Source of the DNA: a virus
Lineage: Duplodnaviria > Heunggongvirae > Uroviricota > Caudoviricetes
Length of the DNA: 9,669 bases
Reading direction: 5' to 3' (one strand)
Virus record (IMG/VR): IMGVR_UViG_2671180254_000012
Part shown: piece after piece, positions 243 to 8,625 of the stretch
Layout: each line of letters begins with the position of its first letter
Numbering within the stretch: the stretch's first letter is position 1
Made by a program: the position numbers and the translations under genes
Notes under the pieces: generated by a model
What the model saw: only the letters and a program-made list of their open reading frames with translations
Told to the model about the DNA's origin: nothing
The model's database searches: none

Positions 243-1325
243 TCATTTTCTCTGGCTGATCTTTACCGGATAACCATCCCGAAGATCAATTAAGTGCTCC
301 GGTTCAGAAGCAAACCATGCATAAGATCCCCACGCCAATTCTGGTATTGCCTTTTTAAAAGGCAGAGCACTTCTGTCCATAAATGCCGTAAGGAATGCAA
401 GATTTTTCTCGCTGAACCCAGCGTCAATAGCCAAATGAGTGAGAGTAACTTTTCGTTCCCTGTTTATAGGCCCATCTGTCGCAACTACTTCAGTGAAAAC
501 TACAAGCATGTCCGAACCCGTTCGGTCCTCTCCCAAATCAATCAAAATAATATCTGGAAGTGCTTTTGAGGCATCAATATTCAGCCCCAATGCTTTTGCC
601 AATACATCATCCTGAGCAACAACTTTATTCCCGGATTCAGACAACCAGAGCACAGTTGGATTCTTAAGAAAATTAGGAGCAAAAACTTCGATGACGGCCT
701 TAGCTATTGTACTTGACGGGCCCGGAGCTAAAGTTCTCTTCTCTCCATTTGGGAAAGTGACGACTACGGCATCAGCAGCAATCACTGCCCCTGATTTCAA
801 TAAACGCAACCTAGCAAGAGCGGCTTTGTTCAAATGATTTTCTTGCCAGGAACTTATTGCACTCAGCAGCGAATCTCCTTCAAGCCCGGCATCAAAGAGT
901 GCTGCAAAAGAGCGATTCAAACTGTAACGAGGACGAGAGGATGTGGTGGGTATACCTTTACGCTCAACAATTGCATTGCAAGGTATTAGGCCATTTTTTA
1001 TAGTTTCATCACGTATTGGCTCACGCGTATTTTCCGCATACCATGCATCAGCAGGCCTTATCTTTTGTTTAGAGAAAGTCATCTTTACCCAGCTTTCTCT
1101 GGACGCATCATCAGTAAGAGCAGCCTGCGAATCTCCCATACTTACAACCTGGCTGGGCCTTATCCATCGCCCCAGCCCCTCAACCGCACCAGCATAAAAC
1201 ATGACAAAAATTGTTTTTGCAGCTATTTCCCGAATTAAATATCCACGATTCTCAGTCCCTTCAGGGAAAATTAATTGTAATCTTTCCCGGATAACATTCA
1301 ATGGGGGAACAACAGGCAGATTCAT
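243..1325 (-). CDS. Type II restriction endonuclease, BsuBI/PstI family
   Basis: 360-aa ORF immediately downstream of and ATGA-overlapping (1322-1325) an N6-adenine methyltransferase gene; the protein resembles the BsuBI/PstI endonuclease family by overall recognition. Not verified by search. Confidence 0.65.
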   Translation of the reverse strand: MNLPVVPPLNVIRERLQLIFPEGTENRGYLIREIAAKTIFVMFYAGAVEGLGRWIRPSQVVSMGDSQAALTDDASRESWVKMTFSKQKIRPADAWYAENTREPIRDETIKNGLIPCNAIVERKGIPTTSSRPRYSLNRSFAALFDAGLEGDSLLSAISSWQENHLNKAALARLRLLKSGAVIAADAVVVTFPNGEKRTLAPGPSSTIAKAVIEVFAPNFLKNPTVLWLSESGNKVVAQDDVLAKALGLNIDASKALPDIILIDLGEDRTGSDMLVVFTEVVATDGPINRERKVTLTHLAIDAGFSEKNLAFLTAFMDRSALPFKKAIPELAWGSYAWFASEPEHLIDLRDGYPVKISQRK

Positions 1326-2796
1326 GCAATCATCACTCCATAGAAACCAGCGATAGTTCTCTCAATAATCCGTCTGTGGACGCCAGCATCAATTAACGAT
1401 TGAATCTCCATCACCTGCTCCAGAGAAGGCAACGGGATTGAATTCAATTCATAGGCCGAAACAGCAACACTTCCGCTTATACACCTGAACGCCCGATCGA
1501 CAACATGCGAATTAAGTAGCATATCAATAACATCAGGGCGAACCGCAGAGAACAATCCGTTTGAATATACAATATTAATATGGTTTTCAACTACTACGCC
1601 ACCAGTTTCATCTATAAATCCCTGAGGTAAAATTGCCGCTAAAATCCTTCTGTCCTGTTCCTTCGATGTTGTCCGCTGAACAAGCACACATTCAGATTTT
1701 GTCACAAGGAAACCCTGTTGTGGGGTTATATCGATATAGGGAACATGATTTTTTCTGTCTGCACTAAAACGAAAACCAGCTGAAGTTATTGATTCCGCCC
1801 AGACTAATGGGTAGCTATTTTTTCCTTTCGTCGTACGCAACTGCGACTTAAATCGATTCCAGACTAACTGACCTGTAGAGACTGAGTATCCCAGATCAGC
1901 TAAACGCGTAGACATCTGTTTTAATACATTAAGAAAACAGGCATCATCTTTAACGCGTGGCAAAAGCCACGTTGCTCCACCTTTTTCTATATCAACATTA
2001 CCTATTTTCTCAATTTTTGCTTTGTTCAACCCCTTAGGGACAAGTGAGGATACCTGGGCCCGAACTTTATGTTCTCCCGCCTTGAATGCTGTCAACATTG
2101 TTTCCTGGAGAACATCGTCAAAGACCCCATCCCTGTCAGTGACGAAATCAAGGGCATACGGAGTAGTTTTTTCGGTCAAAAGGGTTCGCAGCGCGGTGAA
2201 ATACTGCCCACCAAGAAAAGAAGTTGGCGTAAGAAATGCAATAACTCCTGTTTTCTCTTTAACCATGCGAACAGCTAAGTCGGTGAACAATCCATATAGA
2301 TTTGCATGACCAAATAACGAACGAGAATATTTTTCTCTCGTTTTAATATCGAGAGTGACACGTCCGTAAGGCGGATTCCCTACCACAAGATCATAACCAG
2401 AAAATTTATCTTGCTGAAGCGCATCAGCAACAATAATTGTATCTTCAGGCAATCTACGTTTTACCTTTACACATAGTGGCATTAGTACAGATTCGAGCAA
2501 TACCAAACTCATCCAAGCCGCAAATGGATCGATCTCTATCCCCTTTAAACGACGACTGATTCTCCTCAACATCCATTCAGGGGAAGACCCCTTGTCTTTT
2601 TTTAACATTCGAATGGCTACTGGTGCCAAAAATGCACCGCCACCACACGCAGGATCAATAACCGATGCATGAGAAAAATCAACACCAGACTTTTCAGCCA
2701 GGTCCAAGAGACGCGCTACCAAAGGTGGGGGGGTATAGTAAGCCCCCAATTCCGAACGGTAAGCGGATGGCAGCATTACCGTATAAATTGACCCAA
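1322..2796 (-). CDS. N6-adenine DNA methyltransferase, gamma-class (PstI/BsuBI-type M subunit); 5' end lies in the N-run
   Basis: Translation contains GAYYTPPP (motif X), DPACGGGAFL (SAM-binding motif I) and VVGNPPYGR (catalytic motif IV, NPPY) in the gamma-class order. Stop TGA at 1322-1324 overlaps the endonuclease ATG. The N-terminus is hidden by the gap at 2797-3058. Confidence 0.8.
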
Positions 2797-3058
2797 NNNN
2801 NNNNNNNNNNNNNNNNNNNNNNNNNNNNNNNNNNNNNNNNNNNNNNNNNNNNNNNNNNNNNNNNNNNNNNNNNNNNNNNNNNNNNNNNNNNNNNNNNNNN
2901 NNNNNNNNNNNNNNNNNNNNNNNNNNNNNNNNNNNNNNNNNNNNNNNNNNNNNNNNNNNNNNNNNNNNNNNNNNNNNNNNNNNNNNNNNNNNNNNNNNNN
3001 NNNNNNNNNNNNNNNNNNNNNNNNNNNNNNNNNNNNNNNNNNNNNNNNNNNNNNNNNN
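2797..3058. other. Run of N (262 nt), assembly gap or masked segment
   Basis: Directly visible in the sequence. Confidence 0.95.
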
Positions 3059-3140
3059 TGGCCATGGCTTTACAAGTTTGATATCTTTCCAGATTAGAAA
3101 ACTCATTATCTGTAAAAAAATCAAAATGTTGCACATTCAT
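3059..3140 (-). CDS. 5' part of a small ORF of unknown function upstream of the methyltransferase (3' end in gap); could instead be the methyltransferase N-terminus
   Basis: ATG at 3140 (minus) giving MNVQHFDFFTDNEFSNLERYQTCKAMA before the N-run; weak AGGA upstream. Alternative starts at 3176 and 3136. Frame continuity across the gap cannot be established. Confidence 0.3.
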
Positions 3141-4989: not shown

Positions 4990-5476
4990 TTACTTCACAA
5001 CTCCCGGAAAGCTGACATTTGAACGCCAGCTATCCCAGTTAAACGTCACCCACCGACAACCGTTCATGGTCATGCGGTCCATAATCCTCTCACCAAGAAG
5101 CGTGCTCATTGCGGCATGATTCAGGTTTGTTAACATCCCGACACTGCACAGTGATGCTGTCCGGCGATCAATTATCTGGTGCAATACCACCTGCTCGTTT
5201 TTCGTCTCCCGCTGAATGCCTATTTCATCCAGGACCAGCAAATCAACCCCGCAAAGCTCCTGTAAAAATTTTTCACCGGATTTGCCGTTGTCGTAGCTGT
5301 CATGCAACACGCTCATGACATCAGACTCGGTGACGATAATCACGCTGCGCCCCTTCGCCATCAGCCGGTTACCCATCGCCGCTGCAAGGTGATTTTTCCC
5401 GGTGCCGGTTTTACCGCTGAACACAAAATTCGTGCACCCGGTCATCAGTTCGTCAGCTATGGATTTGGCCTGGCTC
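4990..5476 (-). CDS. DnaC-like AAA+ helicase loader (phage replication protein), N-terminus in gap
   Basis: Walker A FSGKTGTGKNHLAAAMG and Walker B-like LLVLDEIG; the frame stays open upstream of the ATG at 5445 to the N-run edge (SQAKSIADEL...), so the true start is hidden. Confidence 0.75.
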
Positions 5477-5726
5477 NNNNNNNNNNNNNNNNNNNNNNNN
5501 NNNNNNNNNNNNNNNNNNNNNNNNNNNNNNNNNNNNNNNNNNNNNNNNNNNNNNNNNNNNNNNNNNNNNNNNNNNNNNNNNNNNNNNNNNNNNNNNNNNN
5601 NNNNNNNNNNNNNNNNNNNNNNNNNNNNNNNNNNNNNNNNNNNNNNNNNNNNNNNNNNNNNNNNNNNNNNNNNNNNNNNNNNNNNNNNNNNNNNNNNNNN
5701 NNNNNNNNNNNNNNNNNNNNNNNNNN
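5477..5726. other. Run of N (250 nt), assembly gap or masked segment
   Basis: Directly visible in the sequence. Confidence 0.95.
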
Positions 5727-6640
5727 TTCACACAACGCTGGTTGTTCGTGCCGCTTACCGGGAGCAACCAGGGGTTTTCAAAATTCCGGTCCGGCCCAAA
5801 AAACGTCGTCGCTCGCTGAACAAATTCCGTTCCCGCTTTCCCGGTCGCCGCCAGGTATCTCGCGTAACGCCTCACACCATCCAGCATGGTCTCTGGTGGC
5901 ACCCCCTCGCGCAATCTGGCCTTCCAGGCACTGAATGCGGATTTCTTCGGGTTTGCCCCGGCACGCAACGGGTATTCCCGCCAGACCTGTTCGAACACAT
6001 CCGGATAATCCACTCGTCCCACAGGCTGCCCGGTGTTTTCCGGGGCTACCCGATCGGCTTCCCGCTGAATGGCGGAATCGGCTTCAGGCTGCTGCAGTTG
6101 GAGTGATTGCTCCGGCCTTGCGGTCATCACCTGCTGCACAGCGCCCGAATCGGCTTTCAGCGCATACGCTGAATCGGCTTCCGGTGTCGAGCCTGCTGGC
6201 TGACCAGGATTGACGGTCTGAACATCCCCTGCCTGGTTCGTGGCGTTTTTTACGCCATGGACCATAGTGTTTTGATCTTCTTTATCTGTATCTTTATCTG
6301 TATCTGTCGTGACTCGTCGTGACATGTGCGTGACATTTCGTGACGCGCCGTGACAATCGCCATTTTGTTCCCGCTTTCTTTCCCTCTCTCGCTGCGCCCT
6401 CTTGCGCTCTGCAGGAGATTTTGCGGTTTGCGAAATATTGCCGTTGTCCTCTTTAAGCACCTGGCGTTTTTCCCATCCAGTGATTAAATCACCATCAAGT
6501 ACCCGCCCCTGCATCGTCTGCAAAATTGAATCAATTACCTCTTCTGTCACGTCGAGCGCACTTGCCAAATCTTCTGTCGTGACATCAATGTGACCTCGCG
6601 TGACATTTCGTGACGCGCTCACCAGGAGGTGGATATACAC
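5727..6640 (-). CDS. Phage replication initiator (O-like / YdaU-like replisome organiser), both ends in gaps
   Basis: Open frame between two N-runs; N-terminal DNA-binding-like region, low-complexity acidic linker (TDTDKDTDKED, PEADSA repeats) and conserved C-terminal region (DYPDVFEQVWREYPLRAGANPKK...TTFFGPDRNFENPW). Sits between YdaT-like and DnaC-like genes as in Rac-type replication modules. Contains iteron-like DNA repeats. Confidence 0.6.
6053..6181. repeat. Four copies of (GA)ATCGGCTT(C/T) in the initiator linker-coding region
   Basis: Copies beginning at 6053, 6077, 6149 and 6173 (spacings 24, 72, 24 bp); they encode the EADS/KADS peptide repeats of the initiator. Confidence 0.45.
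6281..6354. repeat. Iteron-like array: two tandem 12-mers (TTTATCTGTATC) followed by five helically phased CGTGAC repeats; candidate replication origin
   Basis: 12-mers at 6281-6292 and 6293-6304; CGTGAC at 6308, 6318, 6329, 6339 and 6349 (spacings 10, 11, 10, 10 bp); AT-rich tract immediately adjacent (about 6265-6305). Confidence 0.45.
6579..6618. repeat. Second phased GTGAC array; includes an exact 21-bp copy of a segment of the first array
   Basis: GTGAC at 6579, 6590, 6600 and 6610 (spacings 11, 10, 10 bp); GCGTGACATTTCGTGACGCGC at 6598-6618 is identical to 6328-6348. Confidence 0.45.
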
Positions 6641-6895
6641 NNNNNNNNNNNNNNNNNNNNNNNNNNNNNNNNNNNNNNNNNNNNNNNNNNNNNNNNNNNN
6701 NNNNNNNNNNNNNNNNNNNNNNNNNNNNNNNNNNNNNNNNNNNNNNNNNNNNNNNNNNNNNNNNNNNNNNNNNNNNNNNNNNNNNNNNNNNNNNNNNNNN
6801 NNNNNNNNNNNNNNNNNNNNNNNNNNNNNNNNNNNNNNNNNNNNNNNNNNNNNNNNNNNNNNNNNNNNNNNNNNNNNNNNNNNNNNNNNNNNNNN
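6641..6895. other. Run of N (255 nt), assembly gap or masked segment
   Basis: Directly visible in the sequence. Confidence 0.95.
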
Positions 6896-7249
6896 GACAA
6901 AATCATCAGCGTCTCTCACCAGTCGTTCATGCGTCTCCACCAGTTCCCGAAAATAAGCTGAACTGTGGCTGCGCATTCGAGCCACCAGCGGAGGTGGCAT
7001 TGCCCTTTCGATCGCAGGTAACAACGCCTGAATTTTTTCAACAGCGTCAGGGGTGTCTTTATCCAGCCAACGGAAAATCTTTTGGGTGTTGAGATAAAGC
7101 GTGTTGTGCTTGCTGTCGTTATGCAGAACCGGAAACGTCATTCCCAGTTCGAAATAAACCCTGGTTATTTCAGCTGCCGGAACTTTTTCACCGTCCGGAT
7201 GCGCCCAGGCTTTCATCGCCATGCGGATGTGTTCATGCTTGATTTTCAT
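6896..7249 (-). CDS. ydaT: YdaT-like protein (Rac-prophage-type, proposed CII-like regulator/toxin), C-terminus in gap
   Basis: N-terminus MKIKHEHIRMAMKAWAHPDGEKVPAAEITR... recalled as the YdaT family; ATG at 7249 overlaps the stop of the upstream HTH gene in an ATGA arrangement. Confidence 0.6.
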
Positions 7250-7509
7250 GAATCAACCCCCGCCGATGGTTGTGTGTTAGCCTGAAACTCAGCAGGCAAG
7301 CCGTCAGTTGGGTTGGGGTAGGTTTTACTGTCAATCTCATGTGGGGTCACCACCCATCCCGTTGCTTCACACCAACGTAATATTTTTTCTCCTGTAAGTT
7401 TTGCACGCCCCGTTATAACGTGGCTGACCATCCCTTGGGATGCGCCAACAATCTCAGCAAATGAACTCTGGGTTATATGAAAATGATGCAAATATTCTCC
7501 AAGATTCAT
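7246..7509 (-). CDS. Cro/YdaS-like HTH DNA-binding protein (first gene of the rightward early operon)
   Basis: ATG at 7509 with AGGGCGGA RBS; HTH segment SSFAEIVGASQGMVSHVITG; divergent from the repressor gene; stop overlaps the YdaT-like start. The longest ORF starts at a TTG at 7536. Confidence 0.6.
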   Translation of the reverse strand: MNLGEYLHHFHITQSSFAEIVGASQGMVSHVITGRAKLTGEKILRWCEATGWVVTPHEIDSKTYPNPTDGLPAEFQANTQPSAGVDS

Positions 7510-7545
7510 AATCCGCCCTATGTGATGTGTTACCAATGCATAATT

Positions 7546-7585: not shown

Positions 7586-7620
7586 TCAAAGTGATTAGCA
7601 ATCTTATTAGAATTGGATGT

Positions 7621-8121
7621 ATGAAAAGAAAATCATTGTCAGACACCGACCTCAACGCCGCCAGAAGACTGAAAGAAATCTGGATGGCAAAGAAATCTCA
7701 GTTGGGATTGACTCAGGAACGTGCGGCGGAAATTATGGGGTTTTCAACACAAGGGGCGGTAAGTCACTACCTAAATGGTCAAACCCCACTAAACCTTGAG
7801 GCTGTTCTAAAGTTTGCTGGCTTACTGAAAGTTCCCCCTGAGTCAATCAGGCCAGACATGGTAGATTTGCTGCAAATTGCAAGGATGTATTGTCGAGAAC
7901 CACAGCAAGATAACATAGTCGCATTACCAGCAGACACAGAACAAACAGAGGATGAACTACCGTTTGCCGTAGAGCCGATGGAACGAGATTTAATCCATAC
8001 GTTCAGAGCTTTTCCGAAAGAAGATCAAGAACACATGCTTCAGGAGATGAAAGATAAAAAAGAATCAATGGATCGTACGGTTGCGCGGTGGTTAGCTGCA
8101 CAAAAAGGCCGTCGCGCCTAA
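7621..8121 (+). CDS. cI-like prophage repressor (RacR/PaaR2-like), HTH XRE-type N-terminal domain, no recognisable LexA-type peptidase domain
   Basis: ATG at 7621 (the track start at 7591 is a GTG); HTH LGLTQERAAEIMGFSTQGAVSHYLNG; divergent to the cro-like gene; no obvious SD, so possibly a leaderless or short-leader transcript as for lambda cI from pRM. Confidence 0.65.
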   Translation: MKRKSLSDTDLNAARRLKEIWMAKKSQLGLTQERAAEIMGFSTQGAVSHYLNGQTPLNLEAVLKFAGLLKVPPESIRPDMVDLLQIARMYCREPQQDNIVALPADTEQTEDELPFAVEPMERDLIHTFRAFPKEDQEHMLQEMKDKKESMDRTVARWLAAQKGRRA

Positions 8122-8140: not shown

Positions 8141-8335
8141 ATGAGTACAGTCCTTTCCCCAATGGTTTCAGAATTTGAGACAGTTGAGCAAGAAAATAGT
8201 TACAACGAATGGCTGCGGGCCAAAGTAGCAGCAAGCCTCGCGGATCCCCGCCCGGCGATTCCGCATGATGAGGTAATGGCGGAAATGGAACAAATTATTG
8301 CCCAAATTGCTGCTGCAACTCACAGAGGTGAATAA
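8141..8335 (+). CDS. paaA2: PaaA2-like antitoxin (ParE-associated antitoxin)
   Basis: 64-aa ORF with AGAGGAGA RBS; sequence ...SPMVSEFETVEQENSYNEWLRAKVAASLADPRPAIPHDEV... recalled as close to E. coli O157 PaaA2; stop TAA overlaps the toxin ATG by 1 nt. Confidence 0.65.
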   Translation: MSTVLSPMVSEFETVEQENSYNEWLRAKVAASLADPRPAIPHDEVMAEMEQIIAQIAAATHRGE

Positions 8336-8625
8336 TGTTACCCGTTTTATGGCTACCATCTGCTCGTGATGATTTGCGCCAGATCGTAGCCTACATAGCT
8401 AAAGAAAATCCCGCGGCAGCACGCAGAATGAAAATTCGAATTGAAACATCCGTTTTGCCGCTCACAGAGCATCCTTACCTGTATCCTCCAAGCGAGCGAG
8501 TTCTTGGTCTTCGTGAAATTGTAACTCATCCTAACTACATCATCCTTTACCGAGTAACAGCATCAAGCATAGAAGTAGTAAATATTGTGCATTCTCGAAG
8601 ACAGTATCCAGGCAAAAACAGTTAA
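8335..8625 (+). CDS. parE2: ParE/RelE-family toxin (ParE2-like)
   Basis: 96-aa ORF MLPVLWLPSARDDL...EHPYLYPPSERVLGLREIVTHPNYIILYRV...; GAGGTG RBS; translationally coupled to the upstream antitoxin. Confidence 0.7.
   Translation: MLPVLWLPSARDDLRQIVAYIAKENPAAARRMKIRIETSVLPLTEHPYLYPPSERVLGLREIVTHPNYIILYRVTASSIEVVNIVHSRRQYPGKNS

Follow-up and report, generated by a model that had tools for sequence, protein, structure and literature searches.

A probable replication origin of a lambdoid prophage: phased GTCACG repeats and an A+T-rich tract within the gene of its own initiator

Placement of a replication origin inside the gene of its own initiator is a known layout, with phages SPP1 and lambda as examples. 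In SPP1, oriL is located in gene 38 and its AB boxes are bound by the gene product, the replisome organiser G38P (PMC5737612; PMC6316719). A 356-bp oriL fragment, made up of the AB boxes plus an A+T-rich unwinding element, suffices for in vitro replication (PMC5737612), and SPP1 encodes both its own DnaB-type helicase and the G39P loader (PMC6316719). Here the same layout is described for an unstudied initiator family, in a 9,669-nucleotide stretch of Caudoviricetes DNA (IMG/VR record IMGVR_UViG_2671180254_000012; the whole stretch is referred to as the window). Two arrays of short phased GTCACG repeats, one of them adjoined by an A+T-rich tract, were found within the coding sequence of a protein identified from its sequence as a phage replication initiator (Table 1). 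We take these elements, with a probability of about 0.8, to be the replication origin of a lambdoid (Rac/Qin-like) prophage, located inside its own initiator's gene; on the comparative evidence the repeats are very probably the binding sites of that origin, carried in the gene of the protein that binds them.

A first-pass annotation, made from the letters of the window without database searches, had proposed a candidate origin at 6281-6354, composed of five CGTGAC repeats at 10-11 bp spacing beside tandem 12-mers and an A+T-rich stretch. The repeats of this array (array B) were recovered on the plus strand at 6308, 6318, 6329, 6339 and 6349, with successive spacings of 10, 11, 10 and 10 bp. 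The pattern GTGACN5GTGAC matched five times in the window against an expectation of 0.01 (the mean of 200 dinucleotide-preserving shuffles), and 0/200 shuffles reached five matches. Tandem Repeats Finder reported 2.2 copies of a 12-nt unit, TCTTTATCTGTA, at 6279-6305, abutting 4.9 copies of a 10-nt unit at 6306-6355. Translation of the minus strand over array B and the tract reads ...SRRVTTDTDKDTDKEDQNT... and ...CHGASRNVTHMSRRVTTDTDKDTDKEDQNT..., in agreement with the low-complexity linker peptide that had been given for this region.

The comparative evidence described below agrees with the proposed origin, which is probably larger than was suggested, as a second array at 6579-6610 and an inverted copy at 6546 had been missed. 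In this second array (array A), which falls where the gene encodes the winged-helix domain, GTGAC occurs on the plus strand at 6579, 6590, 6600 and 6610. The inverted copy codes the V-T of the peptide DVTE, just ahead of helix 67-77 of the protein model. Arrays A and B are approximately 260-270 bp apart, depending on the register chosen, and have the blocks GCGCGTCACGAAATGTCACGC and TGTCACGACAGA in common. Together they place ten copies of the motif within 310 bp, compared to six GTGAC in the remainder of the 9.7-kb window, and no second repeat-plus-tract arrangement was found elsewhere in the window. A search of 5727-7300 found no perfect DnaA box and no IHF consensus.

Table 1. Coordinates of the repeat arrays, associated elements and main genes of the window
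Feature	Position	Strand	Description
Array A	6575..6616	-	four direct GTCAC(G) copies, 10-11 bp apart; residues 43-56 (ASRNVTRGHIDVT)
Single opposite-orientation repeat	6546..6551	+	~30 bp downstream of array A in gene direction
Array B	6306..6356	-	five direct (T/C)GTCACG copies, 10-11 bp apart; linker residues ~131-147 (CHGASRNVTHMSRRVTT)
A+T-rich tandem tract, candidate unwinding element	6262..6307	-	(AGATAC/AGATAA)n, then GAAGATCAAAACAC; purine-rich sense strand
Imperfect inverted repeat	6236..6266	.	TGGTTCGTGGCGT-TTTTT-ACGCCATGGACCA, just past the tract; significance doubtful
Replication initiator gene	~5678..6742 (ends approximate)	-	~355 amino acids: N-terminal winged-helix domain, low-complexity linker, C-terminal domain
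DnaC-like helicase loader gene	4990..~5670	-	directly downstream of the initiator gene; 5′ part masked
CI-like repressor gene	7591-8121	+	
Cro-like protein gene	7246-7536	-	

The assignment of the gene itself, which the first-pass annotation had called an initiator, was borne out by profile searches and modelling. The full protein, taken from relatives, matched phrog_3729 ('replication initiation protein') with E = 1e-257, its N-terminal domain was confidently modelled as a winged helix in the predicted structure, and a DnaC-like loader gene lies downstream. In the model, array A corresponds to a loop between helices 29-45 and 56-63, where the model confidence is lower, and array B codes residues that follow the winged-helix domain and the basic helix 110-132. 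For Phage_rep_org_N, the family of the SPP1 replisome organiser G38P, both profile scores were below their curated cut-offs, although the alignments extended over almost all of each model: PF09681 reached 12.7 bits where 23.3 are required (E = 0.13, model positions 1-118 of 121) and TIGR01714 reached 15.4 bits where 49.8 are required (E = 0.016, model positions 1-119 of 119).

Comparison with the described systems identified SPP1 oriL, rather than lambda ori, as the closest anatomical match, because the repeats of the window are short direct copies about 10-11 bp apart and not 18-bp palindromic sites. The SPP1 origin likewise lies just past the N-terminal DNA-binding domain of its initiator gene. 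Gene 38 contains short direct repeats about 11 bp apart (AGAAACGACAG, AGAAACGACAC and two copies of GAAAAAGACAC), which we infer to be the published AB boxes, and these are directly followed by an A-rich tandem tract, (AACAATGAT)n, that codes the low-complexity linker NNNDNNENNDNK; a loader gene is again directly downstream. The two systems differ in that the SPP1 repeats are unrelated in sequence to those of the window, in that no second array of the same motif was seen in the domain-coding part of gene 38, and in that SPP1 relies on its own DnaB-type helicase and G39P loader, whereas the window encodes a DnaC-like loader.

The first-pass annotation had likened the layout to lambda ori, and this holds for the order of the elements, their strand asymmetry and their position in the gene: within the lambda initiator gene O, four repeats are followed by an A+T-/purine-rich stretch of ~40 bp, ACAAAAGACACTATTACAAAAGAAAAAAGAAAAGATTATTCG, and then by a palindrome. 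The prophage context is also alike, with CI-like repressor, Cro-like and cII-like proteins encoded upstream. The likeness does not extend to the binding sites, since lambda has a single array of 18-bp sites (ATCCCTCAAAACGAGGGA type) placed 20-24 bp apart from start to start, whereas the window has two arrays of a 6-bp core at 10-11 bp, so that the lambda type of repeat was rejected as unrelated in sequence, length and spacing. The partner protein differs as well (lambda P compared to a DnaC-like protein), and membership of the Lambda O/Phage_rep_O family was rejected for the window protein, which gave no Pfam match to it even at E <= 10.

The Rac prophage provides a third point of comparison, and one that the first-pass annotation had recommended. 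Its replication module, ydaS-ydaT-ydaU-ydaV-ydaW, is where oriJ is thought to be located. No nucleotide-level map of Rac oriJ was found in the literature, so that ydaU, rather than a mapped origin, serves here as the reference for the architecture. Both loci show the gene order cro-like, YdaT-like, initiator, DnaC-like YdaV-type loader and DUF977, and YdaU shares a nearly identical tract (AATAAAGATACAGATAAAGATCTAAAA) and the C-terminal tail PDxxIPPGFRG. It differs in its N-terminal domain, a DUF1376 domain that cannot be aligned with the window protein, and in its repeats, which are its own, GATGTTCAAAC-like, and lie just upstream of the tract. Because the N-terminal domain and the repeats differ, Rac is not regarded as a homologue; BLASTP alignment was confined to the DK/DT linker and the final 19 residues. 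In E. coli K-12 Rac (locus L002, 4500-4660), the GATGTTCAAAC-like repeats of ydaU stand directly upstream of AATAAAGATACAGATAAAGATCTAAAA, and a C7...C7GGGGG element is also present. As the architecture of ydaU is the same as that of the window, this segment is a candidate, at the level of sequence, for where oriJ lies.

The window arrangement has the sequence features of in-gene origins of the lambda ori/SPP1 oriL class, being located within the initiator gene at the junction between the N-terminal DNA-binding domain and the remainder of the protein and containing a regular array of direct repeats with an adjoining A+T-rich region of low stability. Conservation of the motif was assessed in a survey of the family, performed with one genome per species and with the N-terminal 128 residues as the query. 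The 26 loci obtained come from Gamma- and Betaproteobacteria, with a few from other bins, and have A+T contents of 31-66%. The motif was analysed in detail in the 16 closest GTCAC-class genes (locus A+T again 31-66%), whose hosts include Rahnella, Serratia, Bordetella, Pseudomonas, Acidovorax and Chromobacterium. Within this set, GTCAC occurred at gene positions +128, +138, +148 and +159, and again in three to five copies at approximately +386 to +420; three to five copies at the place of array B were found in all 16 genes and in the E. coli phage Tritos. GTGAC was located at +192 in most of the set. Out of 93 spacings counted, 68 were 10 bp and 22 were 11 bp.

A clear pattern emerged when more distant members of the family were compared. 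GTCACG was exchanged for CGTAACG (L020, L024), GTAACGC (L026, L030) or CGAACGC (L025, L028, L031), and the exchange affected both arrays together. The top 5-mer of array A was also the top 5-mer of array B, either outright or tied, in 21 of the 27 genes compared; in most of the other six the common motif was within the top three, and L029 lacked a clear repeat. At the site of the inverted copy, locus L024 (GTAACG class) reads GTTAC, its own motif in reverse complement. Chimeric E. coli loci, which combine the same C-terminal half with another N-terminal domain, carried other phased repeats at the same place: AAGGGGCTT repeats, plus a second upstream cluster, in an O157:H7 prophage, and TTGACCCGTCAA-like repeats in strain SCU-171. 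Both the three motif classes within the family and the chimeras show repeats that change when the DNA-binding domain changes. Upstream and downstream genes vary widely among the loci that keep GTCAC and, because these flanking genes differ between loci, the N-terminal domain is the only constant partner of the repeats. Repeats that track the N-terminal domain carry the signature expected of initiator-bound sites.

The strongest alternative accepts that the initiator binds the repeats and holds that they are regulatory, acting in auto-repression by roadblock, in copy-number control or in site pairing, with replication starting elsewhere. Array A and the inverted copy do lie early in the initiator's own coding sequence, and both conservation and co-variation with the N-terminal domain would look alike for any site that an initiator binds. 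However, an A+T-rich tract with conservation at the DNA level invariably adjoins array B, lambda ori and the linker of SPP1 gene 38 (which holds the validated oriL) pair repeats with a tract in the same manner, and the window offers no other repeat-plus-tract arrangement to serve as the real origin. On this balance a purely regulatory role was judged improbable.

The tract adjoining array B was also as the first-pass annotation had described it. Of all the 40-mers in the initiator gene, the one that begins at 6264 (75% A+T) has the lowest duplex stability; the intergenic immunity region near 7540 is less stable still. The tract codes TDTDKDTDKEDQN, a DT/DK linker. In phage Tritos, as in each of the 16 GTCAC-class genes, the last repeat is directly followed by AGATAAAGATA-type sequence. 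Across these 17 loci the tract is 60-85% A+T and, on the sense strand, 53-88% purine; by A+T content it ranked in the top 0.1-3% of the 40-mers of its locus in 15 of 17 cases, and at approximately 8% in Tritos and L008. It was among the most A+T-rich 40-mers in all of the G+C-rich loci, including those from hosts of 58-69% G+C. In such hosts Asp-Lys is normally encoded as GAC-AAG. The frame in which the tract is read also varies, with DKDKD encoded in some genes and QIREE or RLDKRR in several others, and because it is read in different frames in different relatives, what is conserved in the tract is its DNA.

A second alternative concerns the tract alone, which might serve mainly as a recombination joint, or as a slippage-prone linker for domain shuffling, and not as an unwinding element. 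Its length is polymorphic in steps of 6 bp (compared to positions 6279-6307 of the window, Tritos has 6 bp more and E. coli O145:H28 RM12761 has 42 bp more), the homology of mosaic relatives stops at position 6273 of the window, which is at the tract's edge, and Rac ydaU, whose N-terminal half is otherwise unrelated, has nearly the same tract. This explanation fails to account for the A+T-richness of the tract in hosts of 58-69% G+C, or for its constant place after the phased array, and we regard it as distinctly unlikely as the main role of the tract. The recombination-joint and unwinding roles are compatible with each other.

The association between tract and repeats was then followed beyond the family in viral contigs (L042-L140), using the pattern AGATAAAGATAAAGATAAAGA and testing the 90 nt upstream of each occurrence for at least three copies of one 5-mer at 9-12 bp spacing. 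The tract pattern by itself was not specific, with many matches in A+T-rich giant-virus bins, and therefore only its association with phased upstream repeats was used. Phased repeats preceded the tract in 26 of 115 occurrences, compared to 1 of 115 in the downstream control segment. The upstream motifs included GTCAC, GTAAC, GATACCC, CGTTCAAC, AAGCAA, TGTCC, GTCGCC and CGTCTGA; a few of the other upstream repeats were low-complexity or coding. Proteins checked across these sites included true Phage_rep_org_N members and a DUF1376 (YdaU-type) protein. The tract may be shared by at least three kinds of N-terminal domain that show no detectable sequence similarity to one another, namely the window family, DUF1376/YdaU and Phage_rep_org_N, in phages of Proteobacteria and of other hosts. 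These comparisons suggest a widespread design of in-gene origin in which the tract is the constant element and the repeats supply the variable specificity, and the combination of phased repeats and tract may mark in-gene phage origins in general.

Selection on the DNA itself was examined at the codon level in 16 ungapped genes, made up of 15 of the 16 closest loci (L006 was omitted owing to an insertion) and phage Tritos. At conserved degenerate residues, the fraction contributed by the commonest codon was 0.98 for the 10 codons under repeat cores and 0.55 for the 56 others (Mann-Whitney p = 3.8e-7), the variable codons of the same genes providing an internal control for relatedness. Codons for Ser (TCA), Val (GTC), Thr (ACG), Gly (GGT) and His (CAC) were fixed in 16/16 genes, and the Val codon of the inverted copy was GTG in 14/14 relatives that have Val there. 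Moreover, the motif is coded in three reading frames by different residues (xxG-TCA-C, GTC-AC and xGT-CAC); because the same core is coded in this way, a purely protein-level repeat is excluded. The loop coded by array A carries insertions in L006, L020, L023, L024, L027 and L030, and in at least L006 and L027 these contain additional copies of the motif. Taken together, these comparisons show both the repeats and the tract to be under selection as DNA; for the motif, the peptide is not the target.

These results bear directly on the proposal that the repeats are a by-product of a needed peptide repeat (SRNVT, RVTT, DKDTDK) and that the DNA itself is functionless. While the repeats are in frame with the gene and similar short peptides are encoded at both arrays, the synonymous positions under the cores are invariant where other codons vary, and the proposal is largely refuted by this test. 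The coding of a 5-6 nt core in three frames by different amino acids, the differing frame of the tract among relatives, and the lower model confidence and tolerance of insertions in the array A loop all count further against it, leaving it very unlikely. Equally little credence was given to binding of the arrays by some other protein (a repressor, a cII/YdaT-like regulator, the terminase small subunit at a packaging site, or a host factor): packaging and regulatory sites can also have phased short direct repeats, but the genes flanking the repeats vary widely between the loci that keep them, and the repeats change when the N-terminal domain of the initiator alone changes.

The replication origin proposed here would operate by a mechanism of binding, melting and DnaB recruitment that we infer from lambda and SPP1. 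The winged-helix N-terminal domain would bind the GTCACG copies, probably one per helical turn and on one face of the DNA, to form a nucleoprotein complex. The resulting strain, together with transcription through the gene, would open the adjacent AGATAA tract, and the C-terminal domain and its DnaT/YdaU-like tail would then recruit host DnaB via the phage DnaC-like loader. Array A and the inverted copy would probably enlarge or stabilise the complex, or else let the initiator limit its own expression.

The tail named in this model comprises the last 25 residues of the protein, for which matches are found at the very end of DnaT (SEPDxxIPPGFRG), the replication-restart protein of E. coli, and of Rac YdaU. 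Many members of the family have a full DnaT-like single-stranded DNA-binding domain (PF17948) in place of the short tail. The DnaT/YdaU-like tail may represent a shared docking peptide for a helicase or its loader. In the window the codons for these ~25 residues (SEPDTEIPPGFRG) are masked at 5678-5726, and the residues are known from relatives only (in phage Tritos, L001, at 5952-6030).

A more far-reaching model is put forward tentatively, as possible rather than probable. In this model the origin would be of two parts and the initiator gene would be partly written by its own binding sites, with array A located in an insertion-tolerant surface loop of the winged helix, whose sequence and length would be set by selection at the DNA level, and array B located in the linker. 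The AGATAA-type tract would be a portable unwinding cassette, common to at least three kinds of N-terminal domain and doubling as a joint for module swapping. What the family adds to the textbook design is the codon freeze, a loop dictated by binding sites, and the shared tract. The family offers a clean natural case of overlapping protein and DNA constraints, in which the binding sites hold synonymous codons fixed and shape a protein loop, and its motif classes lend themselves directly to a specificity-swap experiment. Should the observation of a shared AGATAA tract hold up, it would supply a simple sequence rule for locating in-gene origins in many phage initiator families.

A 914-bp query (5727-6640) matched 2123 of 5426 complete E. 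coli genomes, including O157:H7 and O145:H28 strains, and in 1647 genomes the match covered at least 80% of the query length. The family is very common in E. coli. The literature searched yielded no description of these repeats and no mapped origin for this initiator family. A defined origin and motif would help to annotate replication-competent prophages, and the origin could be used in the design of replication-blocking or reporter constructs. With the motif defined, it could also be predicted whether co-resident prophages have shared or distinct initiator specificity (GTCACG, GTAACG and CGAACGC classes).

Three runs of masked bases (2797-3058, 5477-5726 and 6641-6895; 250-262 bases each) interrupt the window, and hide the two termini of the initiator gene along with the beginning of the loader gene. 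The gene ends in Table 1 are approximate because both are masked; they were placed by alignment with phage Tritos and E. coli O145:H28 RM12761, using relatives that are 97-98.5% identical to the unmasked part. The unmasked segment 5727-6640 showed 97% identity to seven E. coli phages, among them Tritos, in which its counterpart lies within a 356-amino-acid coding sequence annotated as "replication protein". The masked runs also give rise to a spurious open reading frame of 598 amino acids (5453-7249), in which the cII/YdaT-like gene, the initiator and part of the loader are fused.

The genes are arranged in the order CI-like repressor, Cro-like protein, cII/YdaT-like protein, initiator, DnaC-like loader, and DUF1627 and DUF977 proteins. 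The loader matched IstB_IS21 (E = 5e-18), NCBIfam PRK12377 (E = 4e-89), DnaC PRK07952 (E = 4e-59) and phrog_50 ('DnaC-like helicase loader').

Beyond the tract, the imperfect inverted repeat has perfect arms of 6 bp in the window and a DNA fold z-score of -1.5, and a terminator-type scan flagged it on the plus strand in the Tritos copy. Its location is reminiscent of the palindrome of lambda ori, but conservation of such a palindrome past the tract was not convincing: inverted repeats at this place did not rise consistently over background in relatives, as the median background fraction was 0.27 and only 6/27 loci were at or below 0.1. On the plus strand, 6236-6266 forms a terminator-like hairpin of 13 pairs, including two G-T pairs, followed by TAGTGTTTTG and antisense to the initiator gene. 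Promoter and terminator counts were at the level of shuffled sequence, this hairpin being the one terminator-like structure on the plus strand, and Rfam gave zero matches across the whole window.

A second family of repeats was observed in a second linker of the initiator (window 6053-6184), where ATCGGCTT occurs at 6053, 6077, 6149 and 6173. On the minus strand these are four copies of AAGCCGAT, arranged as two pairs with a 24-bp spacing, and they code PEADS/KADS peptide repeats. The O157:H7 relative L003 is apparently without part of this region.

Several accessory genes lie near the replication module. A PaaA2-type antitoxin gene (PF21217, E = 3e-23) and a ParE toxin gene (PF05016, E = 2e-17) adjoin the CI-like repressor gene at 8141-8625 on the plus strand; at their place, loci L003 and L005 have a RelB-type antitoxin gene, followed in L005 by a RelE/ParE toxin gene. 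On the minus strand, a BsuBI/PstI-type restriction endonuclease (243-1325) and a partly masked Eco57I/N6-type DNA methyltransferase (1322-3136) are encoded beside the replication module, and phage Tritos has different genes at the place of this pair.

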